Shown here in pieces: positions 1,248 to 16,707 of a stretch of 32,000 nucleotides of DNA. Numbering within the stretch: position 1 is the stretch's first letter; each line of letters opens with the position of its first letter. The DNA comes from Gemmata obscuriglobus (GTDB lineage: Bacteria > Planctomycetota > Planctomycetia > Gemmatales > Gemmataceae). The notes beneath the pieces are model-generated. The model worked only from the letters and a program-made list of their open reading frames with translations. It was not told the DNA's origin and searched no databases. Position numbers and translations under genes: made by a program. The stretch is from positions 1,470,001 to 1,502,000 of the forward strand of contig NZ_CP042911.1 in NCBI RefSeq assembly GCF_008065095.1, read 5' to 3'.

Positions 1248-1273
1248 ATGATTCACTTCCGGTGCTGGTTCTG
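1248..1273. repeat. attL core: 26-bp perfect direct repeat (ATGATTCACTTCCGGTGCTGGTTCTG)
   Basis: Identical 26-mer at 16682..16707. Flanking bases differ on both sides of both copies. Here it reads ATG..TTC followed by TGA, an 8-codon stub MIHFRCWF-stop. Confidence 0.85.
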
Positions 1274-1462
1274 AGACGGCACCAAGCGGACGGATCGCCC
1301 TAACATCTTACACTGAATCACTTACGGCACAACGCCAAAGCGGTACTGTATTGCCGTTCATCATGAAAAATACCGGAGAAAATGGCGGTTGTGCGTCGAA
1401 AGGTGTGGCAACTGCCATACCTGCCACATGTACACTTATTACCTTGTTCCAACTCGGTGCGC

Positions 1463-1490
1463 GAAACGAAAACACCCGGCATGGGCCGGG
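1463..1490 (-). terminator. rho-independent terminator downstream of CDS 1513..2037
   Basis: Minus strand has a CCCGGC-CCAT-GCCGGG hairpin (1475..1490) followed by TGTTTTCGTTTC, 22 nt after the stop codon. Confidence 0.55.
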
Positions 1491-1512
1491 CGAATGGTGC
1501 GGAAAGAGTGGG

Positions 1513-2037
1513 TCAGGAATACCGTTCTAAGAGTCTGTCGAAAGTCCCTTTGGCGTCTGGGGGCATCCAATTCCACTCTCCGACACACTCAAGCATTTTC
1601 TTCACCATCTGCTCCCGAGTCAGAATTAGTACGGCTTCCGCACGATACGTTTGCAGGTACACATCACGAGGGTAGAACCTCTGTAAAACTCCATCGAATA
1701 TTATGTCATCTGTGACTTCGACCCAAGAATGCGGGATAGGAACAAGCGGCCAATCCGGCGGCCAGTAGAATCCCTGCGCGAAGCGAATGCGTTCCGCAGA
1801 AAACGGTGAGGGTGCGGGAGCGTTATCGAGCACAAAATAAAAGGCTCGCTCGTGGCAACGCGTTGGGTAAACATAGGCTGGGGTGACGCGTTTCCACCTT
1901 ACGCCGGTGTCAATCTCGTACCCGTCGAATGGGTCAGTGCGTGCTGCAAAAAAGGCACTTCGCTTCTTTCGCGTCATCATGCTCGCTGGCCTCTGGAATC
2001 CCCTTCGGTTGAAGTGGCTCGTTTCATAACCGCACAA
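1513..2037 (-). CDS. hypothetical protein (AT-richer cargo next to attL)
   Basis: 174-aa ORF; alternative start MMTRKK near 1981. Followed by its own terminator. No family recognised. Confidence 0.55.
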   Translation of the reverse strand: MCGYETSHFNRRGFQRPASMMTRKKRSAFFAARTDPFDGYEIDTGVRWKRVTPAYVYPTRCHERAFYFVLDNAPAPSPFSAERIRFAQGFYWPPDWPLVPIPHSWVEVTDDIIFDGVLQRFYPRDVYLQTYRAEAVLILTREQMVKKMLECVGEWNWMPPDAKGTFDRLLERYS

Positions 2038-2311
2038 GACCGATTGCGGAAGGTAAGCACGGACCCTGCGAAGCCGACAGGGCCGCCCGACGCGCCAGGA
2101 TGCCCGCTGATTCGGTCAACACCTCCTCAATAATGTCCAACTCGTGAAAAGCAGCCGGCGCGGCCTCGCGTAGCGCCTGCGTGTCCGGGTCGTCGTTGAA
2201 CGCCTCGATCCTGCGCAACACGGCTTCGATCTCCCCCAGCACGGGCGCGAGCTTCGCCCATCCCGTCGTGAGGTCGCCCGCCTTCTTCGCCTTCCCGCTC
2301 TTACCCTTCAT
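2024..2311 (-). CDS. hypothetical protein
   Basis: 95-aa ORF whose 3' end overlaps the next minus-strand ORF by 14 nt (operon-like). No family recognised. Confidence 0.45.
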   Translation of the reverse strand: MKGKSGKAKKAGDLTTGWAKLAPVLGEIEAVLRRIEAFNDDPDTQALREAAPAAFHELDIIEEVLTESAGILARRAALSASQGPCLPSAIGLVRL

Positions 2312-2339
2312 CGTTGTGCCCTCAGTGGTGTGATTGGGG

Positions 2340-2498
2340 TTACTTCGTTCCGAGCTTCGTTGCGTGGCACCGCGGGCAGAACAGCCAGCGTTTCGGGTGG
2401 TAGCAGATCGGCCCGTTGCACTTCGGACACACGACGTTCGTTAGCGCGACGCTGCGGGCGGCGCGCACCTTCGGCACGGGCTTCCGTTTGGTAGCCAT
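2340..2498 (-). CDS. small zinc-ribbon protein
   Basis: MATKRKP... with CPKC-N16-CPRC. ATG at 2498 chosen within ORF 2340..2546. Confidence 0.5.
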   Translation of the reverse strand: MATKRKPVPKVRAARSVALTNVVCPKCNGPICYHPKRWLFCPRCHATKLGTK

Positions 2499-2564
2499 GT
2501 GGAATCTCTGAGTTGTGTTCAGGGGAATGGCCGCGGCGAGTCTCACGGCCTGCGTCAGGTCCTG

Positions 2565-2777
2565 TTACACGCCCTTCAGTTCGCCGCCGGCCGGTTCGTC
2601 CGCGATCGTCGCGACCAGTTCGACAGCCTTCGGCTTCGGCACCTTCACGACGAGTTTCACCAACCGCGTCGCCTCGCCCGCTGCCGCCTGAAGCTCGTCA
2701 GCCGCTTTCGCGACTTCGTAGTCTCCGGCCTCGCCCACCAAAACCCAAACCTGGACTTCGACCAGTTCCGCGGGCAT
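2565..2777 (-). CDS. hypothetical protein
   Basis: 70-aa ORF in the same-strand array of small early-type genes. Confidence 0.45.
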   Translation of the reverse strand: MPAELVEVQVWVLVGEAGDYEVAKAADELQAAAGEATRLVKLVVKVPKPKAVELVATIADEPAGGELKGV

Positions 2778-2841
2778 CTCTGCGCACTCCGAAGTTCGTG
2801 AGGAGAGGGCCGGGGAACCGTCCCCCCGGCCGCGGTTGGTG

Positions 2842-3036
2842 TCAGTAGGCGAACAGTTGGACCGGGTGCCGGTAGTCGGGGAGCAGGCGCCCGGTGTTCG
2901 CGTCCATTACCTCCACGCTGGTGGAATCCACCATCCGCACGAACCGCACCCGGCAGTTGTCCAGCGTGCAGAACAGCGGGTCACCGTGAACCACCGTCTT
3001 CTCAACCCCGTCCCGCGTCTTGAACTTGGCTTGCAT
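2842..3036 (-). CDS. hypothetical protein (first gene of the leftward early operon)
   Basis: 64-aa ORF divergent from the XRE gene. Confidence 0.45.
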   Translation of the reverse strand: MQAKFKTRDGVEKTVVHGDPLFCTLDNCRVRFVRMVDSTSVEVMDANTGRLLPDYRHPVQLFAY

Positions 3037-3214
3037 CTCACATCCCTTGCGTTCGTGTCGTTCGGCACATCCGACAGCGAAGGAATGCTAGGCACCCACT
3101 TGGGTGTACGTCAAGTGAGTGTACTCCATTTGGGTGTAAATCTTACCGGGATCGCAACGAACACCCGATTGACGTAGACTCGGCGCAGTCACTACACTTG
3201 AGCGAGGCAAGCCG
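3037..3214. promoter_or_regulatory. divergent switch region with operator-like repeats
   Basis: Lies between divergent genes. Palindrome CACCC-ACTT-GGGTG at 3093..3106. TTGGGTGTA direct repeat at 3100..3108 and 3130..3138, 30 bp apart. Further CACCC half-site near 3173. Confidence 0.5.
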
Positions 3215-3448
3215 ATGGAGCCGCAGTCGATGGGTCTGAAAGAGAATCTGAAACGGTTGCGGGCCGCGAAGGGCTGGACGCAGGCGCAAACCGCAGAGGT
3301 GGCGGAAGTGCCGTTTCGTAGCTACCAGAACTGGGAAGCGGGCACCCGGGAGCCGCGAATTGATGCGTTGCCGAGACTGGCAGCGGCACTCGGAGCAACC
3401 GTTGACCAACTTCTGGCAGACGTCGAGCCCACCGAAGAGAAGAAGTAA
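3215..3448 (+). CDS. XRE/Cro-CI family HTH transcriptional regulator
   Basis: LKRLRAAKGWTQAQTAEVAEVPFRSYQNWEAGTREPRIDALPRLAAALGATVDQLL is a canonical HTH_3 pattern. Confidence 0.8.
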   Translation: MEPQSMGLKENLKRLRAAKGWTQAQTAEVAEVPFRSYQNWEAGTREPRIDALPRLAAALGATVDQLLADVEPTEEKK

Positions 3449-3563
3449 AACCGCTCGTTTTTGTCGAACTCCCGCCCTCACCCGCGAATACCCTCCGGTC
3501 ACCCTCTGGAGGTTCGCTGTACAGTGGACCCCATTGTCTAGACCAAAAAGTTGCTATCCTTCG

Positions 3564-4334
3564 CTACTGTTTCGTCGGGGCCTTCGTGGCTCCGACGCCA
3601 TACACCTGAGCCGGGGTGCGGTAGTCCAGGGACTGGTGTAACCGCTCGGTGTTGTAGAACCCGAAGTACGCCCGGAGCCCACTCTCCAGGGCCGGCACCG
3701 ACTCGTAACCCTTGAGGTACACGTCCTCGTACTTGACGCTCCGCCACAGGCGCTCCACGAACACGTTGTCCAGGCACCGGCCCCGCCCGTCCATGCTCAC
3801 CGCGACCCCGGCCCGCTCCAATCGCCCGACCCACGCGGCGGCCGTGAACTGGACTCCCTGGTCCGTGTTGAACACCTCCGGCTTGCCCCGGCCCAAGGCC
3901 TCCTCCAGCATGTCCTGGCAGAATGACCCGTCCAACGTGTTGGACAGTCGCCAGGCCACCACGTACCGGCTGAACCAGTCCATCGTTGCGGCCAGGTACA
4001 TGAACCCGGTGGGCATCGGGATGTACGTGATGTCCGTGCTCCACACCTGATGGACCCGGTCGATGGCCACGCCCCGCAACAGGTACGGGTACACCTTGTG
4101 CCCGGACCCGACCGACAGCTTGGGCTTGGGGTACAGGGCCTCCAACCCCATGATCCGCAACAGCCGCTGCACCCGCTTGCGGTTCACCTCGTGGCCCTGG
4201 GTGCCCAGCCACGCGGCCAGGCGCCGGCTCCCGTAGAACGGGCACGTCGTGTACTGCTCGTCGATCAACCGCATCAGCGTCAGGTTCTCCGCGCTCTCCG
4301 GGGTCGGCTCGTAGTACACCGTCGAGCGGTTCAA
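3564..4334 (-). CDS. IS3-family transposase OrfB (integrase-core DDE domain)
   Basis: HQVWSTDITYIP...NTDQGVQFT...VERLWRSVKYE...YNTERLHQSL motifs. The frame stays open upstream to 4430, where it reads KKNRPPSAEAKRARIEAEHPELSVRRQCELIGLNRSTVYY. Confidence 0.85.
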   Translation of the reverse strand: MNRSTVYYEPTPESAENLTLMRLIDEQYTTCPFYGSRRLAAWLGTQGHEVNRKRVQRLLRIMGLEALYPKPKLSVGSGHKVYPYLLRGVAIDRVHQVWSTDITYIPMPTGFMYLAATMDWFSRYVVAWRLSNTLDGSFCQDMLEEALGRGKPEVFNTDQGVQFTAAAWVGRLERAGVAVSMDGRGRCLDNVFVERLWRSVKYEDVYLKGYESVPALESGLRAYFGFYNTERLHQSLDYRTPAQVYGVGATKAPTKQ

Positions 4335-4404
4335 TCCGATCAGCTCGCACTGGCGCCGGACGCTCAGCTCCGGGTGCTCGGCCTCGATCCGGGCACGCTT
4401 GGCC

Positions 4405-4692
4405 TCAGCCGAGGGCGGCCGATTTTTTTTTCACCCAGTCGAGTTCCACCTTGAGGCGGCCGATCTGCTCGTACAACTCGGTCGTCTTGTCTTCCGGGGG
4501 GCCGGTGCCCTTCGCCCCCGAGGCGAACACGGCCTCGGCCCCGGTGAGCAACTGCTTCTTCCACCCATGAATCAGGGTCGGGTGGACGCCGTGCTGACTC
4601 GCCAGTTCGTTGATGGTCTTGTCGCCCTTGAGGGCCGCCAGCGCGACCTGGGCCTTGAACGCCGCCGAGTGACTCTTCCGCTTGCCCGCCAT
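4405..4692 (-). CDS. IS3-family transposase OrfA (HTH)
   Basis: MAGKRKSHSAAFKAQVALAALKGDKTINELASQHGVHPTLIHGWKKQL is typical IS3/IS911 OrfA. It ends just after the A9 run. Confidence 0.85.
   Translation of the reverse strand: MAGKRKSHSAAFKAQVALAALKGDKTINELASQHGVHPTLIHGWKKQLLTGAEAVFASGAKGTGPPEDKTTELYEQIGRLKVELDWVKKKSAALG
4423..4431 (-). other. programmed -1 frameshift site (A9 on the minus strand) joining OrfA to OrfB
   Basis: OrfA reads GTG AAA AAA AAA TCG. The -1 frame has TGA immediately before, then opens AAA AAA AAT CGG into OrfB. Confidence 0.65.
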
Positions 4693-4759
4693 GGGTTCCC
4701 CTTTCCTGGGCCTCCGGTATAGCTTAACCGGCGGTCCAGTTTTCGGGGTCCACTATATC

Positions 4760-4969
4760 GTGTCCGACTTCGCCTTTGATGACGAAAGCCCCTCGCGCTA
4801 CCGCCGCTCATCCCCCGGACCGTCATGGCTTCACACCTTCAGCGCGGTGTTCGCAGGCGCCCTGCTCGCGGGCATCCTGCTGTTGGTCGGGCTGCGCGCG
4901 TACCTGAAGTGGTCGATTGAAGACGGCATTGAGAGGATGAAGAACCCGCCCTCGGCTAAGGGGGGATGA
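4760..4969 (+). CDS. possible small membrane protein; start abuts the IS3 end
   Basis: GTG at 4760 in the frame of ORF 4682..4969. One hydrophobic helix FAGALLAGILLLVGL. Start and promoter are uncertain because of the IS. Confidence 0.3.
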   Translation: MSDFAFDDESPSRYRRSSPGPSWLHTFSAVFAGALLAGILLLVGLRAYLKWSIEDGIERMKNPPSAKGG

Positions 4970-5005
4970 GCACTGACCTCGCCTGCGTGTCGTTCTCGTG
5001 GTTGA

Positions 5006-5782
5006 ATGCCGACATCCAAGCGGGCAACTGAAAGCTCCGCACTCTCATTGGATTCAGCAATGCGATTCATTCAGACGTGGATCAAGACTATCGGGGCAGC
5101 TTGGCCTTGGGCCAAGCGACTCCCCGCGACCATGAAGTTCATAGGTTCCATCTGCTCATGCGTTGGGATTGGCACGCTCGCGGCTTGGTCATTTTGGGGC
5201 CGTGAAGTGTCATTCGCTACTTGGCACCTGGCAATCTTACTCGTGGTTGTGATCGCAAGTTTCGGTGGGATCTTTGCTGCCGGCCTCGCCGTTGAGCGAA
5301 TGTCTCGCCCGCTCGTTTCAGTCGGCCCATTTATCTTTGATGTGCCTTACCGCACCCTCTCTTTGCGGGTAACGAACTGCTGCAAGATTCCGGTTAAGCC
5401 AAAGGTGATTATTCGCGAAATCACTTGCGACAACGGAGGGACAATATTTGCGTCGCGAGTTGATCCACATTGGCGCACCAAGCCACTTGGGCAAGACATT
5501 GTGCTGCCGGGCGGGGCGCCTGCTGATACGAGTTTGGTTTGGGTCGTTGGAGCTGGTCAAGAACGGCCGACGGGGCTGTATCTGACCCCGCTTGAGGGGG
5601 GCGATATTCCGCTTCACACCGGCCCGCCACTTACCGCCGGAACAATGTATGCCATTTACCTGATTGTTACCGCCGAAACGTTAACAGGTGAACAGGGGAC
5701 GCCACAGAATTACAAATTGTCATTCGTAAGCGATCCGTCTTGTAAGGGAGGCTACCGCATCCATGACATGCAGCTCGCCTGA
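5006..5782 (+). CDS. hypothetical membrane protein (AT-richer cargo)
   Basis: 258-aa ORF. Two N-terminal hydrophobic helices (FIGSICSCVGIGTLAAWSFW, LAILLVVVIASFGGIFAAGLAV). No family recognised. Confidence 0.55.
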   Translation: MPTSKRATESSALSLDSAMRFIQTWIKTIGAAWPWAKRLPATMKFIGSICSCVGIGTLAAWSFWGREVSFATWHLAILLVVVIASFGGIFAAGLAVERMSRPLVSVGPFIFDVPYRTLSLRVTNCCKIPVKPKVIIREITCDNGGTIFASRVDPHWRTKPLGQDIVLPGGAPADTSLVWVVGAGQERPTGLYLTPLEGGDIPLHTGPPLTAGTMYAIYLIVTAETLTGEQGTPQNYKLSFVSDPSCKGGYRIHDMQLA

Positions 5783-6081
5783 AAAGGGGATGGTCGCATG
5801 CGCCAGAGCAGGTGGAGGTGCGTCACATGACGCACCTCACCGCCTCGCAGGGCCGGCGCAGCAAGTGGCGAGGGAGTCGGATCGGGCGATTCGGGTTCTG
5901 GGTCGGGTTCCGGTTCAGGGGCAGGTGAAAACAAGTGTTCACCTGCCTTCATGTCCTTGATGACGCAGCTCTGACTCACTCCCACCGCATCCGCAATCGC
6001 CCTGGTGCTCATACCCTTTGCCCGGAGCTTCGCCACCCACTCTGCGCGCCCCTCTTTCGTGAGGTGGCGGATATCCGACAC
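5752..6081 (-). CDS. HTH-domain protein with Pro/Glu-rich tail
   Basis: N-terminal LRAKGMSTRAIADAVGVSQSCVIKDMK is an HTH pattern. Function unknown; a small-terminase-like N-terminus is only a possibility. Confidence 0.45.
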   Translation of the reverse strand: MSDIRHLTKEGRAEWVAKLRAKGMSTRAIADAVGVSQSCVIKDMKAGEHLFSPAPEPEPDPEPESPDPTPSPLAAPALRGGEVRHVTHLHLLWRMRPSPFQASCMSWMR

Positions 6082-6374
6082 CTGATTGAAGGCTTCGCGA
6101 GGTGGTCACAAAGGACCACCTGAGCGGCCCGCCCGTTGCGCAGGAGAAGTGAGCAGGCCTCCATACAGGGATTCGGGCGCTGCGGTCCCGATCGGCCCGT
6201 ATACGCGAATCTGTGCGAAATAACACGCATCGGGATCGTGAGGGATTTTGCGCGTTTGATGGGCCGATTCCTGTGGTGTTCACTTCTAGACATCAATCCC
6301 AACTTGGCGCGCCGTGTGGAGTGATGATATCAAGCGGATGTTTAATCAAAATCCGCATTACAAAAGGACATTGC

Positions 6375-6767
6375 ATGAACGAAGATGTCACGGACACGAC
6401 CACCACAGAAGTGACGGCAACGGAACTTGCGGAGATGTTTCTTGCTCATCGTGAGAAGTGCGGCGCCAAGCTCACTGTCGCGATGCGTCGATGCGACCCA
6501 GCCACTAAGCGATTTACGCAACTGATTGAGGTGCAAGAGCCTGGAGACGTTGCGCGATACGCGCCGGGCGCGGTGATGGGCGATATCCGGAACTTCATTC
6601 GCGCGCTGCCGGTCGATACCTGCGGTGAGGAAGACGTGGTCGTTGAATCAATTCACCGCTGCCTTTTGGGGCTGCTCTGGGATTCTCGCAAAATCGCCCC
6701 GGAACATAACGTTCAACCTCTCGGCGGTTGTGCGGTCAATGCGGCGAGTCCCCCAACCGCTTCGTAA
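6375..6767 (+). CDS. hypothetical protein
   Basis: ATG at 6375 inside ORF 6213..6767 (MNEDVTDTTTT...). No family recognised. Confidence 0.45.
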   Translation: MNEDVTDTTTTEVTATELAEMFLAHREKCGAKLTVAMRRCDPATKRFTQLIEVQEPGDVARYAPGAVMGDIRNFIRALPVDTCGEEDVVVESIHRCLLGLLWDSRKIAPEHNVQPLGGCAVNAASPPTAS

Positions 6768-6853: not shown

Positions 6854-7108
6854 TTAACGCCTTCGGTGCTTCCAGCAGCACGACGACGAACACCATTTGC
6901 GACGCCACCGGTCCGCGTCGAACTTCGCCCCGCATCCCTTGCAGGTCAGCCCAATGCGGAGTTCCGCCCGCCGGCTCGATTCTTTCACGTGGCCCGCCTT
7001 GGATCGGCACTCAGGCCCGCAGAAGACCGGAAGCGGCCCGCGTCGCGGAACGCGCACGATCGGCCCGGAGCAGTGCGCGCATTTTCGGTCTTCAACGGTA
7101 CGGCCCAC
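6854..7108 (-). CDS. small multi-Cys zinc-finger protein
   Basis: CAHCSG...CGPEC...CKGCG...CSSSCC cysteine pairs. Confidence 0.45.
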   Translation of the reverse strand: MGRTVEDRKCAHCSGPIVRVPRRGPLPVFCGPECRSKAGHVKESSRRAELRIGLTCKGCGAKFDADRWRRKWCSSSCCWKHRRR

Positions 7109-7252: not shown

Positions 7253-7573
7253 TTACCCTTTCGCGTTGCGTCCCAAGCCGCCGTCTTCCCGAACCGTCTT
7301 CCTGCTATGGCACGGCTTGCAGAGGCTTCGGAGGTTATCGAGGTCGTGCCCTTTCGGTCCGAGCGGCCCCAACCCGTCGATGTGGTCAACCTCCGTCGCC
7401 CCGCAAGTCAGCCCGCGTTCGTCGCAGTCCTCGCACAGGGGATTGCGCGCGAGCTTCACCGCCCGCGTCCGATTCCACCGCCCGTCGTAACCACGCTTCG
7501 CCGCAGAGGGGCGCATTGCTTCTGTCGAGACGCCTCGCGGCCGGGTGTTCAGCGTTGGCGGTTTCCTCGGCAT
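7253..7573 (-). CDS. phage-type HNH endonuclease
   Basis: RGYDGRWNRTRAVKLARNPLCEDC...EVDHIDG...NLRSLCKPCHSRKT is an HNH motif. ATG at 7573 chosen so it does not overlap the upstream terminator or gene. Confidence 0.8.
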   Translation of the reverse strand: MPRKPPTLNTRPRGVSTEAMRPSAAKRGYDGRWNRTRAVKLARNPLCEDCDERGLTCGATEVDHIDGLGPLGPKGHDLDNLRSLCKPCHSRKTVREDGGLGRNAKG

Positions 7574-7610
7574 ACGGGAGGTGGTTTTCCGCCCGCGCTC
7601 AACATGTCCT

Positions 7611-7665: not shown

Positions 7666-8934
7666 TCAAAAGATGCTTATGTTTTTGATGATGTATGTTC
7701 CAGTGGTCCAAATCTTCGCGGCGATAACCCAGATCGCGCACGCCGCACCCGTGACGTAAAGGGTGCCACAAATGACACGTAACGTCGGCGTTTTCCACGC
7801 CAGCGGCCAATAGTGGAGGAGCGATCGCTTAAGCTCGTCGCACCACTTCTCTTGTGAGAATTCCCGTATTCGCGCTGGGCACCAAATGCTGTAGATTGTC
7901 GAAGCAACCGCAAGCAATATCGTTGAGGTGAATAAAAGCAGCGTTTGGGAAGGCAGCGGCAATTCGTGAACATAGTGACTCACCCATACACCCCGCGGGC
8001 TAGGGCTGTCGGCCAGCTTTTTAACCTGCTCATTATGCCAAGCAATGATGTATACGTAAGATGCGACGAAGGCGAATCCGGTCCAAGACGCACTGAACAA
8101 AGGCAGCCGTCCAAACGTCCGAAGTCGCTCCCAGCTACACCACCTTTCCCGCCAATTAATGTCGCAATGATCGAAATATTGTGCATTTGATTCGGGGTGC
8201 GTTTTGTCAAGGTGTAAAGACTGTGGCGCACCCTTAACTCTTGACCAAATGCCGTCGGTCAACTTAGCTTCAAAGAAATTTGCTTTTGAGACATCCGCAC
8301 CAGTCATGACGACATTTTCAAAAATTGTTTGTTGAAGTTTTGCATCAACGAAGTTTGCCCCCGGGATTACCGCAAAGGAGAAACTTGCAGCGACGAGATT
8401 GGCGCTGGCAAAGGATGTCATGTGATTCCCTTGGGCGCCACACCACAACGATTTCGGCAGATGCGCCCCCAAAAACGACGCTCCGTTAATGACTGAGCCT
8501 TCCATGCTAGCTTTTACAAAAACACAGCCTTCAAAATCAGAACCCGTTAAGTTGGCGTCTCTAAAATTGACATCCAGCCCCCCTATTGATGGGGACCCGC
8601 TATAGTGTGCTCGGTCGTTGTCAGCGCTGCGAAATTTTGAACGTTGGAGGTCCGCCTTGGTAAAGATGGCGGCGAAGAGGTGGCAACGATCAAAAATTGC
8701 CCCCCGCAGGTCTGCCCGACTAAATATAGCGCCCACAAGCGTCGATCCGGTAAAATCCGCCTCAGGCAAGATGCTATCGGTGAAATCTACGTGGCTTAAA
8801 TCAAGGTTGGAAAAGTTTGCTTTATTGAGTTGGCAGTGAGTCAAATCTAACCGGTCATCCTCACCTGCCTCCAGACGCCATTTTTTAATTTCTTCATTAC
8901 CCGCTTGCACAATAGCCAGATGCAATTGGTTCAT
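7666..8934 (-). CDS. pentapeptide-repeat protein with a C-terminal 3-helix transmembrane domain
   Basis: N-terminal GNEEIKKWRLEAGEDDRLDLTHCQLNKANFSNLDLSHVDFTDSILPEADFTGSTLVGAIFSRADLRGAIF..., a long run of A(D/N)LXX-type repeats. C-terminal hydrophobic helices. ATG at 8934 preferred over the TTG at 8991. Clearly AT-richer than its neighbours. Confidence 0.85.
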   Translation of the reverse strand: MNQLHLAIVQAGNEEIKKWRLEAGEDDRLDLTHCQLNKANFSNLDLSHVDFTDSILPEADFTGSTLVGAIFSRADLRGAIFDRCHLFAAIFTKADLQRSKFRSADNDRAHYSGSPSIGGLDVNFRDANLTGSDFEGCVFVKASMEGSVINGASFLGAHLPKSLWCGAQGNHMTSFASANLVAASFSFAVIPGANFVDAKLQQTIFENVVMTGADVSKANFFEAKLTDGIWSRVKGAPQSLHLDKTHPESNAQYFDHCDINWRERWCSWERLRTFGRLPLFSASWTGFAFVASYVYIIAWHNEQVKKLADSPSPRGVWVSHYVHELPLPSQTLLLFTSTILLAVASTIYSIWCPARIREFSQEKWCDELKRSLLHYWPLAWKTPTLRVICGTLYVTGAACAIWVIAAKIWTTGTYIIKNISIF

Positions 8935-8993: not shown

Positions 8994-9932
8994 TCAGATC
9001 CCCAGCAACGCCGTGAAGTTCTGAAGTTGAAGGCTCCTGGGCAGTCCCCGGAGAAATACCGGCTCCGCATCGGCTGCGAGCTTGCGCCCTTGCCCGTCCA
9101 GCGGGAATGGCCCATCTTCACCGTAAGGCCCCCTCATTGCTCTCCACGTCACGGGATGCTGTCCGTCAGGCGTGGTAGGTAGCTGGACAAGCTCCATCAT
9201 GCCCGCGTCGAGAACCTCCGGAATCCAAGTTTCGTTTTTGAGCGCCACTTCCACGGCAAACTCAACGAACGCCACGCCGTTTTCGTACTTCGAGCCGGCG
9301 CGGGTGCCGCGCACCTTTGCGCACCACTTAGGAATTCCCCGCCACATGCGGTCGTTAATGGCGTTCTCGAATTTAAGCAACTGCTCCCCGGAAATGTACG
9401 GGATGTTCCGCGTGAGCCGCCACACGGGCCGGGCGACTTCGATTTGTAACCCGGGGTCAAACGGGAGCTTGGCCGAATTGCGCACCGGTGTGAAGTTCGC
9501 CGCGAGGTTCCCGGCCGTGATGACTCGCCACTCGCGCGCAACCTCCGTCGTTGTCTCGAAACTCACCTCCCAGGTAACCGGGCGCAGCAGCGGGTTTTCG
9601 GGGATGTCCGCGGGGGACTGCCCGGCACCTTCTGGGCTGGTGCCGTTCGGGAGCGAAGGGTTGCTGTCGTACTTGATCGATACGAGCCAGTGAAACGGAG
9701 ACTCTTCACTTTGCGCCGCTTCGATCTCGACACACACCGCGAACGGGAACCGTGGGTGCGGTTGCCCCAGGCGGGGGAGCCCCACGAGCGCGGCAGTCCC
9801 GACAACGATTTCCTCATCGTCGAGCGGGTTATCGGTAATCACCTCCCACTGCTCGCGGTAGGTGCGCTGCCGGGTGAAGGTGTCCGTACCACCGCGACCG
9901 GTCCACGTCATGTTTGCGCTGACGACCGACAT
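8994..9932 (-). CDS. hypothetical protein (possible virion/structural protein)
   Basis: 312-aa ORF with good coding appearance, in the late-type gene array. No family recognised by eye. Confidence 0.6.
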   Translation of the reverse strand: MSVVSANMTWTGRGGTDTFTRQRTYREQWEVITDNPLDDEEIVVGTAALVGLPRLGQPHPRFPFAVCVEIEAAQSEESPFHWLVSIKYDSNPSLPNGTSPEGAGQSPADIPENPLLRPVTWEVSFETTTEVAREWRVITAGNLAANFTPVRNSAKLPFDPGLQIEVARPVWRLTRNIPYISGEQLLKFENAINDRMWRGIPKWCAKVRGTRAGSKYENGVAFVEFAVEVALKNETWIPEVLDAGMMELVQLPTTPDGQHPVTWRAMRGPYGEDGPFPLDGQGRKLAADAEPVFLRGLPRSLQLQNFTALLGI

Positions 9933-9962: not shown

Positions 9963-10310
9963 TCAGTTAGCGCCATCGAATGCCGCTTGCGCTTCGTCTT
10001 TGGTCGCGAACTCCCGCGCTACGACTTCGCGCAGGGATGCGAGCAGCTTCGGGCTTTGGGAGTTGGGGAAGTCGCAGCACGCGGGCAGCATGCGCTCTGC
10101 GCCGGGGACGCCCGCCGCCTGCGCCTCTTGCAGGAGCAGTTGCGCCCGCTCAGTAGCGCCGATGTACGCGGACCACTTCAATGCGGCGTCGCGCCCGGCT
10201 TGCCGCAGTTCCGCGAGGTATTCGCCCTCGGTCTTCTGTGGTTGTGGTTCCACGTTCCAGCCTCGAAGGGGTTGAGAGAAGGCGCCGCGAACGTCGCGGC
10301 GCCTGACCAC
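9963..10310 (-). CDS. hypothetical protein
   Basis: 115-aa ORF in the same array; start uncertain. Confidence 0.45.
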   Translation of the reverse strand: MVRRRDVRGAFSQPLRGWNVEPQPQKTEGEYLAELRQAGRDAALKWSAYIGATERAQLLLQEAQAAGVPGAERMLPACCDFPNSQSPKLLASLREVVAREFATKDEAQAAFDGAN

Positions 10311-10314
10311 ACTG

Positions 10315-10698
10315 TTAGCTGAGCGAGACGTTGCGGACCGACTTAACCCACCACTTCCCGTTTCGCGCGATCAGGACGATGTTGTCCCCCTTCGCGCCGC
10401 CGAAGGTCGCCAAGTCGGAAGCCGTCCCGCCGTCGTTGAACCCGCTCCCGGCCGCGTTGCTCAGATAGTGGGCCGCGGCCGTCTCGGAGAGGATGGTGAG
10501 TTCCTGCCCGTCGTCGCCGCCGGCCGGGTCGCGGCGCCCGGCGCGCGGGTCCGCGATCGTGAGGGCCGCAGACGTCGCCTTCGTGATGCTCACCGTGCCG
10601 GAACACTGGGTGATTGCGCCGTCCCCGCTCTGCACCGAGTGCCGCGGCTGGAGGTCGCCTTCGAGCATCGTCGTTGCCGTCAAGTTGTTCTGCGGCAT
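10315..10698 (-). CDS. hypothetical small Gly/Ala/Thr-rich protein (possible structural or decoration-like)
   Basis: 127-aa ORF with beta-rich composition. The functional guess is weak. Confidence 0.55.
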   Translation of the reverse strand: MPQNNLTATTMLEGDLQPRHSVQSGDGAITQCSGTVSITKATSAALTIADPRAGRRDPAGGDDGQELTILSETAAAHYLSNAAGSGFNDGGTASDLATFGGAKGDNIVLIARNGKWWVKSVRNVSLS

Positions 10699-10756: not shown

Positions 10757-11563
10757 TCAGATGCCGTGCAGGTACGGCATGACCACGAGCACCTCTTCGC
10801 GGGTCAAGTGCCCCTCTTGCACGAGGTTGCACACGATGCGGTTTTGCCAGTGGTCTAAGAGGTCGCTGTGGAACGTGGCCGGCGGCGGGTTAAAGCCTCC
10901 TGCGCGGAGTCGATCAGCCGCCCCGCGCTCTTCCCAATCGCATTTGATCAGCGCCAGGAGGGCCAGCGCCTTCGCTCGGCACGCGGGCACCAACTCGCGT
11001 TGCGCAGCTTCCGCCGAGAGCCGACGCACGGCCAGCTCGCGCGCGTCGCGAACCTTCTTGCTCGCGATCTCTTCAGCGCCGGCGAGCCGCCGGACGCGCG
11101 TCCGGAGACGTTCAAGCGTCTCGATGTCCGCGTCGGATTGGCCCGCGGCCAAGAGCTGCACCGCGAGCTTTTCCACGTCCTTCGCCGACGCGCCCGGCTT
11201 CAGCCCTAACGCGGTCTCCAGCGCCGTGATTTCCGCCACCAGCGCGAGGCGCTGTTCCGAGAGCCGGGTTAACCCCGCCTGCGCTTCGACCACCTCCGGC
11301 TCTTTGTTCGGATCGGGCAAGCCCACGATGGCTACGCCCGTGCGGGCCGGGAAGGGTACGGGTGCCGGTAACGAGGCCTTGGAAGCCACGGGCATCGGCT
11401 CCGGCCCCTGCCGCTTGTGCGGCGTCGTGGTGCGCGCCGGCTCGGCGCGTCGCATTCGCTCAGCAACCGCGGCGCCCGACTCGCTTTCGCCCGCGACATC
11501 CCGCGCCATCTGCGCGAGCATGTCGTTCACAACCGCCGCATCCGCCTCAGCTTCGTTCGCCAT
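10757..11563 (-). CDS. hypothetical Ala/Glu/Arg-rich coiled-coil protein (scaffold-like guess)
   Basis: ORF 10757..11602; ATG at 11563 (MANEAEAD). Long helical, low-complexity stretches. Confidence 0.55.
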   Translation of the reverse strand: MANEAEADAAVVNDMLAQMARDVAGESESGAAVAERMRRAEPARTTTPHKRQGPEPMPVASKASLPAPVPFPARTGVAIVGLPDPNKEPEVVEAQAGLTRLSEQRLALVAEITALETALGLKPGASAKDVEKLAVQLLAAGQSDADIETLERLRTRVRRLAGAEEIASKKVRDARELAVRRLSAEAAQRELVPACRAKALALLALIKCDWEERGAADRLRAGGFNPPPATFHSDLLDHWQNRIVCNLVQEGHLTREEVLVVMPYLHGI

Positions 11564-11623
11564 GATCACCTTTCGTTTCGTGATGCCGTTCAGCCCGACC
11601 ACAGCGGCCGGGTGGTTGCCACG

Positions 11624-12082
11624 TCAGCCGCACAGGCAATCGACGTAAAACTCTTCACCGCAGAAGTCGCACAACTCCTCTTTGGCAGGGCGAGCACAGC
11701 GGGGCGAGGTGTTCGCCAGCGCCGCCGCGATACGCTGCTGATCGGCCAACCCGGCGAGCGCCCGGCACTGCGCCGAGATGCGTTCCATGTCGCGGGTCAA
11801 CTGACTCTTCCCGGTCGAAGCGGGCCGCGCGCCCCCGCTTCGCTGGATGTGCGATCGCGCCGAGTCGAGCGGAACCCGCCGGCCCGAACGCAGGTGCAAC
11901 GTCGTGCTCCCCAATCCCAGACCGGGCGAGCGCTGCACCAGCATCAACTGTGTCTCGATCGCTTCCGCCAACTCGATGTCCCCCGCGGCTTCCGCCTCGT
12001 GCGACACCTTCTCCAAGTCCAGCAGCGCGGACGCGATCCCGGCCGTGTTCCCGCGCTGGTGTTCTTTCGATGCGTAGATCAT
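11624..12082 (-). CDS. hypothetical protein with C-terminal Cys cluster
   Basis: 152-aa ORF ending in CDFCGEEFYVDCLCG. Confidence 0.45.
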   Translation of the reverse strand: MIYASKEHQRGNTAGIASALLDLEKVSHEAEAAGDIELAEAIETQLMLVQRSPGLGLGSTTLHLRSGRRVPLDSARSHIQRSGGARPASTGKSQLTRDMERISAQCRALAGLADQQRIAAALANTSPRCARPAKEELCDFCGEEFYVDCLCG

Positions 12083-12099
12083 TCAGCCCCCGTGTGACT

Positions 12100-12324
12100 T
12101 CAGCCCCGAATCTCAACCACCTTGCCGCCTCGCGTCGCACCCAAGCCCGCGCCGTCCCCAAGCAACTCCCGCGGGATGCGCAGTTGCCGCCCGACCCGGT
12201 TCACGACCAGTGCGCCCGACTTGATGAGCCGGCGCACCGTTGATTCCGACACCTGCTTCGCCCGCGCGAATTGCGGAACGGTGAGGTCCGTTGCGCCTTC
12301 GGGCAGAACCGCGTTGGTGAGCAT
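12100..12324 (-). CDS. excisionase-family HTH DNA-binding protein
   Basis: LTVPQFARAKQVSESTVRRLIKSGALVVNRVGRQLRIPRELL matches the excisionase/MerR-like HTH_17 pattern. ATG at 12324. Confidence 0.6.
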   Translation of the reverse strand: MLTNAVLPEGATDLTVPQFARAKQVSESTVRRLIKSGALVVNRVGRQLRIPRELLGDGAGLGATRGGKVVEIRG

Positions 12325-12458
12325 TGGTGAATACCCCTGACCGCTCGTGACGCCCCCTGACGCCCGCAACTGTTCCCCGGGTGCCCGAAACGTCCTGGTG
12401 CGCACGAAAAAACCGCGCGGGGATTCCGCGCGGTCGTGTGGTACTAGGATCGCCGGGT

Positions 12459-12938: not shown

Positions 12939-12954
12939 GACGCCCTCACGTTGG

Positions 12955-13509: not shown

Positions 13510-13570
13510 TCGCTGCCCTCGCAAAGTGTCTGTCGTTACCACGCCGAGTGGCCGGGGGTGCGTCTCAACA

Positions 13571-13710
13571 CGCATCTGTAAACGGATGCGCACGGACGAA
13601 AACGGATGCGCGCACAAGTGGGCAGATGAAAGCACCCGTGCGCAGGTGAAAACAGATGTACCGTATTCGTATTCGTATTCGGGTGCGTATTCGGGTTCGG
13701 ATTCGTTCTC
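13571..13710. repeat. phased short-motif array plus hexamer tandem repeat upstream of the sigma gene
   Basis: CRGRTG at 13583, 13603, 13623, 13643 and 13653, and inverted at 13573, all on a 10/20-bp register. 12-mer AAACGGATGCGC at 13580 and 13600. GTATTC-type hexamers x7-8 at 13663..13710. Confidence 0.6.
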
Positions 13711-14015
13711 TTGCTCGGAGGTGGCCAAGCCACCAACCGAGCCGGCGGTAGTGCCAGTGCGTGCCATAGCTCGATAGTGTTGCTTTTGAGGGGCGTATTT
13801 GTCGAGGTTCGCAATCTGATTCGTGGCCGCAAGCGGCGCCACTCGCCATTTTGAATTGAAGGGGTCTAAAATCGAAAACGCACCCTTTGCCGCCCGTCTG
13901 CCTATCTGTTCACCCGTTCACGCCCTGGCGCAAGTGCTAGGGCCGTTTCTGACCGTGTGGCGAAGCGTGCGGAGGATCGTGCCGCTGTGGGCGTGGGTTG
14001 ATGGAGGCGGGGGCG

Positions 14016-14053
14016 GTTGCCCCTGCGACAGGCTTCGGCCCCGCAGGGGCAAC
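14016..14053. other. long GC-rich stem-loop (possible terminator) downstream of CDS 14073..14435
   Basis: GTTGCCCCTGCG (14016..14027) pairs with CGCAGGGGCAAC (14042..14053), a 12-bp stem. T-rich tract only on the plus-strand side. Confidence 0.4.
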
Positions 14054-14072
14054 ACTGTCTTTAGTCTCTTCT

Positions 14073-14435
14073 CTACTCTTCTCTGGCGCCACTTTGTGAC
14101 GCTACAGTTACATCACTCGTGGCGCCACCGGTGACAGCCTTCCGAGACGCCTTTCGTTCACGGTAACGCCTCTGGCGCTCCGCGTGCGCGGCTCGCTGAT
14201 CGCCTGTCGGATCTACGTTAAAGTCCTCGAAGAAATGCGGGAAAACAAGGTTCCCGCCACTCTCCACGAGCCACCCGACCGCGATCATAGCCACACCCAT
14301 ACCGGGCATGTCCGCGATGGCGTCAATCACGCTGGCGCCGCACCCACGGATTACTAAGTCGTCACCGTCGCGATTCCCGCTGCGTCTCGCAACACCCCAC
14401 ACCGCCACCAGCGCGCCTACGGTGGCGTTACGCAT
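14073..14435 (-). CDS. hypothetical protein, weakly replisome-organizer-like
   Basis: 120-aa ORF. The C-terminal FFEDFNVDP...AAHAERQRRYRERK resembles the basic tail after the winged helix of phage replisome-organizer N-domains. This is recollection only. Confidence 0.5.
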   Translation of the reverse strand: MRNATVGALVAVWGVARRSGNRDGDDLVIRGCGASVIDAIADMPGMGVAMIAVGWLVESGGNLVFPHFFEDFNVDPTGDQRAAHAERQRRYRERKASRKAVTGGATSDVTVASQSGAREE

Positions 14436-14489
14436 GATGTCACGTGTGACGCTACCGTTGTGTCCGTCGTGACGACACGAGCGCGTCGC

Positions 14490-14540
14490 GAGGTTCCGTA
14501 GGAACCTCTATGTCTTTACTCTGATCTCTGATCTCTGAGG
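14490..14540. repeat. hairpin + (CTGATCT)x2 module, copy 1
   Basis: GAGGTTCC-GTA-GGAACCTC hairpin at 14490..14508, then CTGATCT CTGATCT CTGAGG at 14521..14540. Confidence 0.75.
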
Positions 14541-14572
14541 CTTTGGACATGGTTTGAGGCGACCTTTGCTGC

Positions 14573-15233
14573 ACCTTTGGGGCAACCTTTGGAGAACCTT
14601 TAAAGGTGTCGCCGGGAGTAGACTTTTGCGCCGCCTTCTCGCCAACATCGTTCGGCGGACTGCCCAATTCCGCCCGAGGCGCGTCGGCGCCCCCACCAGA
14701 CACCGAAACCACCCCCGACATGACCTTTGCAGACACCTTTAAAGGTCCGGTCAAAGGTGCCTGCGCAGAACCTTTAAGCCGGGGGCTGCCCCAACCTTTG
14801 GGGCAACCTTTGTCCGCCTTTGGGGGTGTCACCAAAAGCCCCAGTAGGTTCCGAAGGAACCTAATCTGATCTCTGATCTCTGATCTCTGAGGGAATATCC
14901 CCACCCTTAACCACACCCTTAAGGGTGCCCTTAACCGCTGCGCCGGGGGTGGGCTTATCCCTCCCCTTAAGGTCGGGGTTGCCGCCGAGCCGGCCCGCCG
15001 CGCTCGCCTTCGCCCTAAGTCCTTCATCCGCAACCATTCGCCGCGAGTAGATCGCTCCGTTCCCGTCGCGCAAGAACACCCCGGCGCTTTCAAGTTCGTC
15101 GAGAAGGTCAAGAACCACCTCGGACGATTCGCCGCACGCGCGAGCCAACTGCTCCGGGGTAATCGCAGCTTGGGGTTGGGCAGGGGTTGAGCCGCCGGTT
15201 AAGCCAACCCTTAACCCACCCCTTAAGGGTACG
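14573..15233. repeat. dense field of short direct and palindromic repeats (candidate iterons/ori)
   Basis: 19-bp perfect direct repeat ACCTTTGGGGCAACCTTTG at 14573..14591 and 14794..14812. 15-bp inverted pair at 14596..14610 and 14732..14746, containing the ACCTTTAAAGGT palindrome. CACCCTTAAGGGTG palindrome at 14914..14927. CCCTTAAGGG at 15220..15229. Several more CCCTTAA copies. Confidence 0.7.
14845..14893. repeat. hairpin + (CTGATCT)x3 module, copy 2
   Basis: TAGGTTCC-GAA-GGAACCTA hairpin at 14845..14863, then CTGATCT x3 + CTGAGGG at 14866..14893. Confidence 0.75.
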
Positions 15234-15265
15234 ACGTGTTCGAGTCCACCGCGACGCGAGCGTTC

Positions 15266-16558
15266 CTACCCCATCGCCCGCGCCACTTCGATTTTCGCCT
15301 GCCTCTTCGGATCGACGTGAACGTAGACCGCTGCCGCCACGGCCTCCGAGTCTCCAATTGCCGCCGCCGCGTGCGTCAAGCTCCGGAACCGCTCTGCAAC
15401 AGCCGTTGCCAGCGCGTGCCGCAACTGGTGCGGTGTCCACACGGGCACACCAGCTTTCACCGCCGCGAGCTTCACGGTAGCGCGGTAACAGTCGCGGTCG
15501 ATCGGGAACACCTTCTCGCCCGGCTTAGTCGCGGCGAGGTGCGGCCGGAGCAGCTCGACGGCTTGCGGCCCGAGGAAGTATTCTTGCCCCTGTCCGCGGT
15601 GTAGGTTCTTGTTCGCCTTGCCCACCTCGTAGCACCACACATCGCCCCTTTGGTCGATCTCCTCCGGCACCATCGCGCACACCTCGCCCGGCCGCATACC
15701 CGTGAGCCTCTGTAGCCTCACCATCGCGACGACACGCGAACGGCGCTCCGGGGAGCGGTTGGGGATGCACGCTAGCGCGGACTCAATTTGCGCGTCCGTG
15801 GTCGGCTTACGGCGCTGCCGATCCGGCGCCTTCGTGCGTCCCGGCGCAAGCCTCTCCACCAATTTCAGTGTGTTGTAGACCGTCTCGGACACAAGGGATT
15901 GTGCGGCACACCAGCGGAAGCACCGGACAATTCGAGCGGTGTACGAATTGCACACGCCGCGGGTGAGGCCGCCGTTTACAAACTCCTCGCGGCAAACGCG
16001 GAGCATGGCGGGTTTGAAATCTTGGGCGGGTGTGTTGCCGTACAAGCTAACCGCAACGCGGGCCGCCGCGCGGACGTGGGTCAACTCGCTCGTCTGCTCA
16101 CCGCCTTTGACGTAATGCCGCTCGCAGTGAGATACCCAGGCTTTGAACAGGCTCGCGACAGAAGTGCCGTCCGGTCCACCAGCCGCGATGAGGGTTTCGT
16201 AGGCACCGCTTGCCCACTCTGCGGCAAACCGCCGGTAGGCTGTTGCCGCTTCCGCGCTGCCGTACTTTCCGAAGTACCGTTCATGCCGCCGGCCGTTTGC
16301 TTTCCATCGGCAGTATGCTCGCCCTGATGGGTGGCGCTTGTACTCTGGGCACGCGCGAGGAACGCCAGCCTTCGGCCGCCCGCGCCGGCCCCGCGATTTC
16401 GCGGGTGTGTTCAGCGCTCGTGCCGTGTCCCACCCAAGCTGGTGAATCCGCGTCCATACCGTGTACGGCGAAATCTGGCGAATCCTCGCCCACTCCGCGA
16501 GCGTACGAGACTCTCCATCGAGTTCGAAAAGGGGAGACTTCGGCATTTTGCACCTCAT
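15266..16558 (-). CDS. int: tyrosine site-specific recombinase (phage integrase family)
   Basis: C-terminal catalytic pattern RLTGMRPGEVCAM...HQLRHALATAV...AAAVYVHV (R...HxxR...Y). Adjacent to attR. Alternative ATG at 16546. Confidence 0.9.
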   Translation of the reverse strand: MRCKMPKSPLFELDGESRTLAEWARIRQISPYTVWTRIHQLGWDTARALNTPAKSRGRRGRPKAGVPRACPEYKRHPSGRAYCRWKANGRRHERYFGKYGSAEAATAYRRFAAEWASGAYETLIAAGGPDGTSVASLFKAWVSHCERHYVKGGEQTSELTHVRAAARVAVSLYGNTPAQDFKPAMLRVCREEFVNGGLTRGVCNSYTARIVRCFRWCAAQSLVSETVYNTLKLVERLAPGRTKAPDRQRRKPTTDAQIESALACIPNRSPERRSRVVAMVRLQRLTGMRPGEVCAMVPEEIDQRGDVWCYEVGKANKNLHRGQGQEYFLGPQAVELLRPHLAATKPGEKVFPIDRDCYRATVKLAAVKAGVPVWTPHQLRHALATAVAERFRSLTHAAAAIGDSEAVAAAVYVHVDPKRQAKIEVARAMG

Positions 16559-16681
16559 TTTGAAAGGGTGAGTGCAATCCGATGCCGCTTGCGTGCTGTC
16601 TCAAAATGGCGGGCGCTGCCACCCCTCACATTTGGCCACTAGCGTATGAAACGCTAGAATTCCTAGCGAATTGAGGGGCTT

Positions 16682-16707
16682 ATGATTCACTTCCGGTGCT
16701 GGTTCTG
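16682..16707. repeat. attR core: second copy of the 26-bp direct repeat
   Basis: Identical to 1248..1273. Here it supplies codons 1-8 and part of codon 9 of CDS 16682..17038. Confidence 0.85.

Follow-up and report, generated by a model that had tools for sequence, protein, structure and literature searches.

What kind of element is inserted in this part of the Gemmata obscuriglobus chromosome, and what has it done to the gene that it entered? The stretch in question, hereafter the window, comprises 32,000 nucleotides of contig NZ_CP042911.1 (positions 1,470,001 to 1,502,000 of the forward strand). Within it, two copies of a 26-bp sequence enclose an interval of low GC content that carries a tyrosine integrase gene near one end together with several phage-type genes. 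We are highly confident that this interval arose by the integrase-mediated, site-specific insertion of an island of phage origin, and elements of this kind are well known. That the integrated island is compact, mobile and most likely a helper-dependent satellite, with a lifestyle like that of the phage-inducible chromosomal islands (PICIs), is the interpretation that we favor with more modest confidence. PICI-type satellites possess an integrase, a regulator, a swappable replicon and a packaging gene, and no virion of their own. To our knowledge very little is known of the phages and mobile elements of Planctomycetes, and a full-text literature search returned no paper on satellites in Planctomycetota or on this island.

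The sequence ATGATTCACTTCCGGTGCTGGTTCTG is present twice on the plus strand of the window, at 1248-1273 and at 16682-16707, and the two 26-mers are identical. An earlier note on this DNA had described them as a perfect direct repeat with mismatching outer bases, and this is correct: the bordering bases are c and t upstream and a and t downstream. Over the 60 nucleotides beyond the copies the two sides agree at 12 of 60 and 18 of 60 positions, which is the chance level, and the repeat is therefore exactly 26 bp long. The window contains no third match, even with 3 mismatches allowed, and none was found in 100 dinucleotide-preserving shuffles, in agreement with the note's contention that the probability of a chance match is negligible. 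The interval also differs in composition from its surroundings, as had been claimed, with a GC content of 61.6% compared with 73.4% in the left flank and 74.3% in the right, and the repeat copies coincide exactly with the compositional boundaries. Together with one copy of the core the interval amounts to 15,434 bp, or about 14.2 kb when an IS3 insertion that it carries is subtracted. The window is 100% identical to G. obscuriglobus contig ABGO01000005.1 over 20,357 bp.

What is repeated is the beginning of a gene, including its ATG, a feature that the earlier note had not recognized. The 26 bp consist of the ATG and the next 23 bases of GobsT_12730 (in our count, eight and two-thirds codons beyond the start). 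This gene has 61 homologs, the named ones all from Gemmata or Gemmataceae, and most of these open with a close variant of M-I-x-F-R-C-W-F-C-N-R. The left copy of the core (attL) starts 25 nt past the stop codon of a response-regulator gene (509-1222). At the right copy (attR) the reading frame of GobsT_12730 is rebuilt intact behind element DNA, and the start of the integrase gene is 124 nt away. Deletion of the interval and one core copy restores a normal gene start with a conserved -10 box. The junctions predicted for such an event are GGCGGTAGAATGCCCGC-ATGATTCACTTCCGGTGCTGGTTCTG-TAACCGCGCGTTCGTG for the empty site, attB (1247 / core / 16708), and GCGAATTGAGGGGCTT-ATGATTCACTTCCGGTGCTGGTTCTG-AGACGGCACCAAGCGG for the excised circle, attP (16681 / core / 1274). 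Forty nucleotides inside the element, at the attL end, is a degenerate partial copy of the core, TGAATCACTTACGG, which is possibly an extra integrase binding site or the relic of an earlier att; this pattern was chosen after viewing the sequence, and its statistics are optimistic.

It was of interest to ask which of the two flanks is the native upstream region of the target gene. The upstream boxes of four orthologous loci (L008, L010, L004 and L017) were compared with that of the window, and in L004 and L017 the box is TACAAT or TACAAC, 6-9 nt before the ATG. The outer flank of attL, ggTAGAATgcccgcATG, resembles the corresponding DNA of L010 (ggTACAATtaccgcATG) and L008 (ggTAGAATgcaccATG), and the attR flank does not. 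From this resemblance we conclude that the attL outer flank is the native upstream region. The position of a -10-type box so near the ATG suggests that the native mRNA of the target gene may be leaderless. A formal two-hexamer promoter scan gave no site at the native box. On the attR side a promoter scan found 2 sites compared with 0.1 expected, and these include a sigma-70-like sequence in element DNA that faces the target gene; a Shine-Dalgarno-like GAGGGG is present in element DNA 4 nt upstream of the attR ATG. To judge from this arrangement, GobsT_12730 is probably still expressed, under the control of the element.

Orthologous loci were gathered by protein look-up and by codon-degenerate scans for the core in genome and metagenome collections. 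In all 18 of these loci, from other Gemmataceae and from metagenomes and including several redundant copies of one region, the core occurs once and continues as coding sequence, and none of the other 27 of the 28 window proteins queried has a relative at any of them within the flanks compared. This is the comparison with related genomes lacking the element that the earlier note had suggested; the evidence for empty sites is cross-species, and gene order around the target differs between species, so that no strict same-locus comparison is involved. Scanning genome contigs for the core, both exactly and with codon degeneracy, yielded 10 matches. In six cases the match is a single copy in a member of the Gemmataceae or Planctomycetia; the four matches in cyanobacteria, a Lachnospiraceae bacterium and an archaeon are presumed to be due to chance. 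The JGI metagenomes gave no exact and nine degenerate matches, eight of which are starts of the orthologous gene; the locus of the remaining one (L035) encodes no relative. The same scan of IMG/VR gave no match. In L017 (Gemmata sp. IIL30, HG799462.1, 5577-6831) the target ortholog looks split, with residues 1-62 and 89-117 about 1 kb apart, as if interrupted by an insertion.

These data bear on the possibility that the 26-bp repeat is unrelated to integration and reflects chance, a dispersed repeat or some other rearrangement. The scan of collections did not return the G. obscuriglobus genome, and further copies were judged within the 32-kb window, which gives this explanation some room. It is nonetheless very improbable, given that no chance matches are expected, that the repeat is the compositional boundary, that one copy is so close to the integrase start, that excising the interval rebuilds the gene start with its box, and that other genomes hold the sequence once, as the start of this very gene. 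The proposal of the earlier note, an integrative element bounded by att core repeats, is instead supported by the integrase, the foreign composition, the rebuilt gene and the single-copy orthologs.

The integrase looks intact, as had been noted: when its open reading frame (ORF) is aligned to XerD, residues R289, K317, H377, R380 and Y412 stand opposite the catalytic residues of XerD. In an alignment of 26 family members R, K, HxxR and Y are invariant or nearly so, and at none of the invariant columns does this integrase deviate. Homologs with 50-61% identity are frequent in Gemmataceae. The nearest relatives (55-61% identical) are found on metagenomic contigs of phage-like character that also encode RecT, DnaB, Prim-Pol and methylases and bear a related sigma-like gene beside an HNH gene. 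Three phage-like metagenomic contigs with related integrases (L018, L022 and L023) encode dGTP_diPhyd_N and dATP-dGTP_PPHyd, presumably the MazZ- and DatZ-type enzymes of phage genomes that contain 2-aminoadenine (the Z base), which hints at the use of Z-DNA by some Gemmataceae phages.

To decide what sort of phage-derived island this is, we turn to its relatives. Six related loci are available: L020 in Frigoriglobus tundricola, L021 and L025 in Gemmata sp. G18, L024 in GCA_901538265.1 (LR593886.1, G. massiliana), L026 on an IMG/VR contig and L036 on a Logan contig. The chromosomal ones are near 478-500 kb of CP053452.2, 7.16 and 7.32 Mb of JAGKQQ010000001.1 and 1.35 Mb of LR593886.1. The six have in common with the window a block that encodes a sigma-like protein, a prohead protease (S78), an HTH_17 protein (of the helix-turn-helix, HTH, type) and counterparts of the 152-aa and 281-aa proteins; in L025 neither S78 nor HTH_17 was recorded. 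Individual relatives also have counterparts of the 127-, 115-, 312-, 84- and 70-aa proteins and of a pentapeptide-repeat protein, and the identities between window and relatives range from about 30 to 82%. The replication module is a 289-aa protein with DnaB in L024 and L026, an AAA_25 protein in L025, and in L036 an HTH_17 protein followed by a 927-aa D5_N/DUF5906 primase-helicase, directly after the integrase gene (int). None was called in L021, and that of L020 would fall beyond the DNA retrieved. A small terminase (TerS) of the Terminase_4 type is encoded in four of the six (L021, L024, L026 and L036), and several encode a protein of about 450 aa with weak tape-measure similarity and a chaperone-like protein of about 120 aa. 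The integrases of L026 and L036 are divergent and were missed by tblastn with the window integrase; that of L026 adjoins tRNA-Ser. In L020 the small-ORF operon homologous to the one at the attL end of the window abuts int directly. From int to the XRE end, a distance of 10-14 kb, no capsid, portal or large terminase gene was recognized in the relatives. Judged by gene content, the element appears to be one member of a compact and apparently undescribed family in a poorly studied phylum.

The element genes are mostly on the minus strand (see the table). Of the phage-like content that the earlier note had listed, the integrase, sigma, S78, HNH, XRE and HTH_17 domains were all found. The part that did not hold up well is the excisionase role given to the HTH_17 protein. 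This gene adjoins S78 in five of the six relatives (the exception being L025) and is fused to it in two of them, and this tie to S78 makes an excisionase role doubtful. The sigma-like ORF had been over-extended to 295 aa; gene callers give 184 aa, and homologs align only to residues 94-295. A search of PDB sequences with the S78 protein, made for its catalytic residues, returned only spurious WD40 matches. The 281-aa protein, for which a word-based homolog search found two proteins only, was considered as a major capsid protein. This was rejected: it has no Pfam or PHROG match, and by eye it and its homologs (four were aligned) look helical, unlike a capsid protein of the HK97 type, and rich in Ala, Glu and Arg, an appearance that would be scaffold-like. 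The 127-aa protein (10315-10698) is 82% identical to its counterpart in G. massiliana (L024:16703-17086), compared with 40-55% for neighboring genes, which suggests either recent exchange or strong constraint on this protein. Searches of IMG/VR with the 281-aa alignment and with the 127-aa protein found nothing further.

The 312-aa protein is a phage protein. Its family comprises 1444 cluster representatives at E <= 1e-3 and has no Pfam or PHROG model. An AlphaFold2 model built from a 64-sequence alignment has a pLDDT (predicted local distance difference test score) of 93, compared with 34 for a single-sequence model, and in BFVD it matched only uncharacterized Caudovirales proteins of uncultured tailed phages, with E values down to 1.9e-15. 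Against the PDB nothing fell below E = 0.06, and many of the best of these weak matches are tail terminator, tail tube, Dit-like and baseplate proteins rather than capsid proteins, so that the model would be compatible with a protein that is possibly of tail type. PDB sequence and profile searches were empty, none of the 64 members matched PHROGs, and tblastn against GenBank phages gave no match. The idea that the 450-aa proteins of the relatives are long versions of the 312-aa family was rejected, as a profile made from an alignment of the family did not match them. The pentapeptide-repeat protein, which has a counterpart with 48% identity in the Frigoriglobus element and whose gene occupies the stretch of lowest GC in the element (49-52%), is probably cargo. 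A PADLOC defense scan gave only a weak match, ZorE-like, to the HNH protein. In each of the two Logan assemblies of G. obscuriglobus there is a single-base difference from the window, in both cases inside the element. In SRR5887332 it is G>A at 6367, within the 147-aa ORF, and in SRR5887367 it is C>A at 8165, within the gene for the pentapeptide-repeat protein.

Features of the element and of its target, with positions in the window (aa, amino acids; E, E value; int, integrase gene)
Feature	Position	Strand	Remarks
Native -10-like box TAGAAT	1236..1241	+	Host DNA, 6 nt upstream of left-copy ATG; TAGAAT, TACAAT or TACAAC 5-9 nt before ATG in orthologs
attL core copy (putative)	1248..1273	+	ATG plus 8 codons of target gene, then TGA at once
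Degenerate third core copy	1314..1327	+	12/14 identical to 1249-1262
Five small ORFs (174, 95, 68 [Zn-ribbon-like], 70 and 64 aa)	1513..3036	-	Divergent from XRE gene, reading out through attL
XRE-family HTH regulator, 77 aa	3215..3448	+	HTH_3, E = 2e-12
IS3-family insertion, about 1.24 kb	3518..4758	-	orfA 4405-4692, orfB 3564-4334; ends good to about 2 nt
Possible small membrane ORF (4761-4969) and 258-aa predicted membrane protein (5006-5782)	4761..5782	+	Downstream of XRE gene; no family matches
109-aa HTH_23-like ORF	5752..6081	-	Accessory
147-aa ORF	6324..6767	+	Accessory
Conserved 84-aa ORF	6854..7108	-	48-54% identical to L020:4674-4955 and L025:19199-19483
HNH endonuclease	7253..7573	-	PF01844, E = 1.1e-6
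Pentapeptide-repeat protein	7666..8934	-	PF00805, E = 5.6e-38; C-terminus hydrophobic by eye
312-aa beta-rich protein	8994..9932	-	Large uncharacterized tailed-phage family, weakly tail-tube-fold-like
115-aa and 127-aa ORFs	9963..10698	-	No family assignment
281-aa protein	10757..11602	-	Kept in all family members; no Pfam or PHROG match
152-aa conserved protein	11624..12082	-	C-terminal part fused to protease in L021 and L036
HTH_17 (MerR/excisionase-type) protein	12100..12405	-	PF12728, E = 1.4e-7; gene callers give 74 aa, 12100-12324
Prohead serine protease domain protein (Peptidase_S78), 159 aa	12459..12938	-	E = 1e-15
Sigma-70 region-4-type HTH protein, about 184 aa	12955..13509	-	PF08281, E = 3.6e-7
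Rep-like protein, 120 aa, intact	14073..14435	-	phrog_2509, E = 6e-18, profile positions 29-130 of 277
Iteron-rich, origin-like region	14460..15230		AAAGGT arrays at 11-12 bp spacing, TTAAGGG arrays, long repeat and palindrome
Tyrosine integrase, 430 aa, intact	15266..16558	-	PF00589
Sigma-70-like promoter TTGGCC-17-TAGAAT	16632..16660	+	Consensus match in element DNA facing target gene, 21 nt upstream
attR core copy (putative)	16682..16707	+	True 5′ end of target gene
Target gene GobsT_12730, 118 aa	16682..17038	+	Cys-pair motifs, hydrophobic stretch; 61 homologs

The possibility that the element is a complete temperate tailed phage was rejected, as no capsid, portal, large terminase, tail or lysis gene was found by Pfam or PHROG match among the window ORFs scanned. 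Only three element ORFs exceed 312 aa: int, the pentapeptide gene and a 344-aa plus-strand ORF that is antisense to the 281-aa gene. Since no plausible ORF is large enough, a portal or a large terminase cannot be encoded.

Between the sigma-like gene and int there is a region that appears to serve replication. The 120-aa Rep-like protein corresponds to the N-terminal portion of the replication initiators that make up certain phage protein families. Next to its gene is a segment that holds 12 of the 21 AAAGGT and 8 of the 9 TTAAGGG motifs of the window, as well as two copies of CTCAGAGATCAGAGATCAGAG, 352 bp apart, each followed by an AGGTTCC-N3-GGAACCT palindrome. The earlier note had placed a frameshifted replication gene here, a view that we could not uphold. 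The 219-aa ORF in question (14452-15111) overlaps the iterons, and its GC contents at codon positions 1, 2 and 3 are 0.57, 0.59 and 0.62, compared with third-position values of 0.75-0.95 in most of the other ORFs taken as genes; by eye its translation resembles low-complexity noise. This lack of coding bias and the density of the iterons make it more likely that the segment is a replication origin than a damaged gene. The sole hint of a damaged gene is an in-frame, winged-helix-like stretch (14861-15265) that has no conventional start before 15148. A further segment (13560-13720), between the Rep-like ORF and the sigma-like gene, contains 7.5 units of CGTATT, 20-nt repeats (13580-13651) and inverted repeats. 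It is probably non-coding regulatory DNA, though spanned by the over-extended 295-aa ORF.

A replication region of this kind, together with the integrase and the cargo-like pentapeptide membrane protein, would also be expected of a non-viral integrative element (an integrative conjugative or mobilizable element, or an integrative plasmid) that had picked up a few phage-like genes and is moved by conjugation or mobilization. When the main ORFs were scanned against Pfam and PHROGs, however, there was no relaxase, coupling protein or type IV secretion domain. Furthermore, the core of the family is of phage morphogenesis and packaging type, with S78, Terminase_4, chaperone-like proteins and a Caudovirales protein family. 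We regard this explanation as improbable.

More serious is the possibility that the interval is the decayed remnant of a full-size temperate Gemmata phage, of which int and att survive after deletion of the capsid, portal, terminase, tail and lysis genes, and which is now immobile. The protease, the HNH endonuclease and the tail-fold-like protein are pieces that a remnant might be expected to contain, the nearest integrase relatives are, as noted above, on phage-like contigs with replication, recombination and methylase genes, and this copy has an IS3 insertion and is without the TerS, 450-aa and chaperone-like genes of its relatives. Against decay, the reduced block is present in the same order in six other loci, accompanied by three to four replication modules and two integrase types. 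Phages that decayed independently would not be expected to arrive at one and the same reduced gene set. The two 26-bp repeats have stayed identical, and none of the conserved ORFs is interrupted. Finally, the layout of L036, in which int is followed by HTH_17 and a D5-type primase, is one that is typical of satellites. We therefore consider a remnant rather unlikely, and, on the strength of the recurrent reduced set and of the PICI-like layout, prefer a satellite. The balance tips slightly, and not more than that, toward a satellite-type element over a remnant.

The likeness to PICIs, including the Staphylococcus aureus pathogenicity islands (SaPIs), extends to several features. The element is of the same 12-16 kb size class with int at one end, it has a repressor-type regulator with divergent transcription, its replication module contains a putative iteron origin and is exchanged for others among the relatives, and no capsid, portal or large terminase was detected. 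Among the relatives there is in addition an AlpA-like HTH_17 beside int and then a D5-type primase (L036), and a small terminase in most. In contrast to PICIs, this copy lacks TerS and a primase, and its host phylum is Planctomycetota. PICIs have been delimited by a size of about 7-18 kb, a terminal int and an absence of structural and lysis genes; size and int fit, and S78 and the 312-aa protein of a phage family are present. We know of no described PICI packaging or interference module that matches the block of sigma-like, S78, HTH_17, 152-, 281-, 312- and 450-aa proteins. Capsid-forming PICIs (cf-PICIs) are similar in being small islands with an S78 prohead protease and HNH, and the relatives resemble them in having Terminase_4. 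They differ in that no major capsid protein, portal or connector was detected here, the protease being the only part found of the capsid module that defines them. Unlike P4-like satellites, which are characterized by an alpha-type primase-helicase and the psu, sid and delta set, the window has no primase domain among the ORFs scanned; psu, sid and delta were not searched with dedicated models.

Two other comparisons concern the mode of insertion. Among the chromosomal islands of Streptococcus pyogenes (SpyCI) there are some whose own promoter restores expression downstream of the insertion (PMC4689407, PMC3430984). The present island resembles these, for example SpyCIM1, in occupying the first 26 bp of a gene and in having an outward promoter-like site, and differs in its unrelated host, target and proteins and in that the reading frame is rebuilt intact. 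With lambda, P2 and P4-type systems it shares the R, K, HxxR and Y residues of a tyrosine recombinase, the duplication of the core as attL and attR in conserved host sequence, and an attP situated between int and an upstream operon. In contrast to those systems, which insert at the 3′ ends of tRNA or protein genes, the target is the 5′ end of a protein gene, there is no complete phage, and the integrase has Asp at the His/Trp III position.

These comparisons lead to the following model. The integrase would recombine the 26-bp core of attP with the identical first 26 bp of GobsT_12730, so that the core is duplicated. In the circle, the XRE-controlled operon of small ORFs would read across attP into int; integration would cut int off from the promoter of this operon and so stabilize the integrated state. 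Bertani is said to have advanced a split-operon idea of this sort for P2 int. An element-borne promoter-like site would keep GobsT_12730 expressed after integration. Replication would begin at the iteron region with the help of the small Rep-like protein, and the late-type block, which comprises the sigma-like protein, S78, HTH_17, the 152-, 281-, 127-, 115- and 312-aa proteins and HNH, would act on the assembly line of a helper phage. A more specific proposal, which we hold tentatively, is that the island belongs to an undescribed satellite family of the Gemmataceae that combines a PICI-like layout with a distinct module for remodeling or parasitizing helper virion assembly, and that in G. 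obscuriglobus it has in addition taken over the start of a conserved, probably leaderless host gene and replaced the promoter. The module in this proposal would consist of the sigma-like protein, S78 linked to HTH_17, the scaffold-, tail-fold-, tape-measure- and chaperone-like proteins and the small terminase. We infer the att function of the repeats, the replacement of the promoter, the origin function, the dependence on a helper and mobility at the present day from the arguments given above.

Several observations weigh against a mobile, helper-dependent satellite of this description. Concerning mobility, both Logan assemblies of G. obscuriglobus display the integrated attR junction, with no excised circle or empty site there, and neither a second occupied site nor an attP junction was found in genome contigs, JGI metagenomes or IMG/VR. 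No convincing excisionase was identified in the element. The integrase has Asp at the His/Trp III position, in agreement with the consensus of the 26-member family, and so departs from the canonical sixth residue. This copy carries the IS3 insertion and, by tblastn with the TerS proteins of the relatives, most of which have one, the window encodes no TerS; it may be a crippled or weakened copy. Concerning the satellite character, no helper phage was identified, and one of the proteins without assignable function (the 152-, 281-, 127- and 115-aa proteins here and the 450-aa proteins of the relatives) could be an unrecognized structural protein. The far ends of the six relatives are outside the DNA retrieved, their compact size being based on one observed end each and on gene order. 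For five of them (L020, L021, L024, L025 and L026) an exact-repeat search of int-proximal DNA against the rest found no att repeat, nothing exceeding 13 nt. Lastly, the promoter calls are consensus matches, and planctomycete promoters are poorly known.

The remaining features of the element are in its left part. Of the products of the five small ORFs, the one of 70 aa has counterparts with 46-68% identity in L020, L021 and L036. The IS3-family insertion (an insertion sequence, IS), which the earlier note had reported, is borne out by its domains (HTH_Tnp_1 in OrfA; rve, rve_3 and HTH_21 in OrfB), by its length, and by imperfect terminal inverted repeats, TGTACAGTGGACCCC and GGGGTCCACTATA, the right end being without the usual CA; IS3 elements are 1.2-1.5 kb long and carry orfA and orfB in overlapping frames. 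Two independent Logan assemblies break at window position 4728, 30 nt inside the end of IS3; if these assemblies were made with k = 31, the break would fit an IS3 present in multiple copies. When the flanks of the insertion were joined no convincing ORF was restored across the junction, and the insertion therefore looks intergenic, between the XRE gene and the small membrane ORF.

Beyond the target gene, a tRNA-Sec gene (24907-25002) is followed by a stretch of lower GC content (65%, 25000-32000) with fragments of DDE transposases. This stretch contains an AAA ATPase gene (27126-28109) beside one for an 883-aa subtilase (28118-30769); it also contains an N6 DNA methylase gene (30902-31525), which is truncated. 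There may be a second island at tRNA-Sec.

If the element were only a dead remnant, the present analysis would be routine annotation. What lifts it above the routine is the takeover of the very start of a conserved gene, and membership in a compact, apparently undescribed family. The insertion would provide a clear example from nature of a conserved gene whose promoter has been exchanged for that of an element, and in which control of the gene by excision and re-integration would be open to direct test. For Gemmata, a model organism whose genetic toolbox is small, the integrase and its defined 26-bp site could be of use in directing integration. Should the family prove to be a true satellite lineage, the biology of phage satellites would extend to a new phylum and would gain a new hijacking module, with a protease and tail-like proteins at its center.

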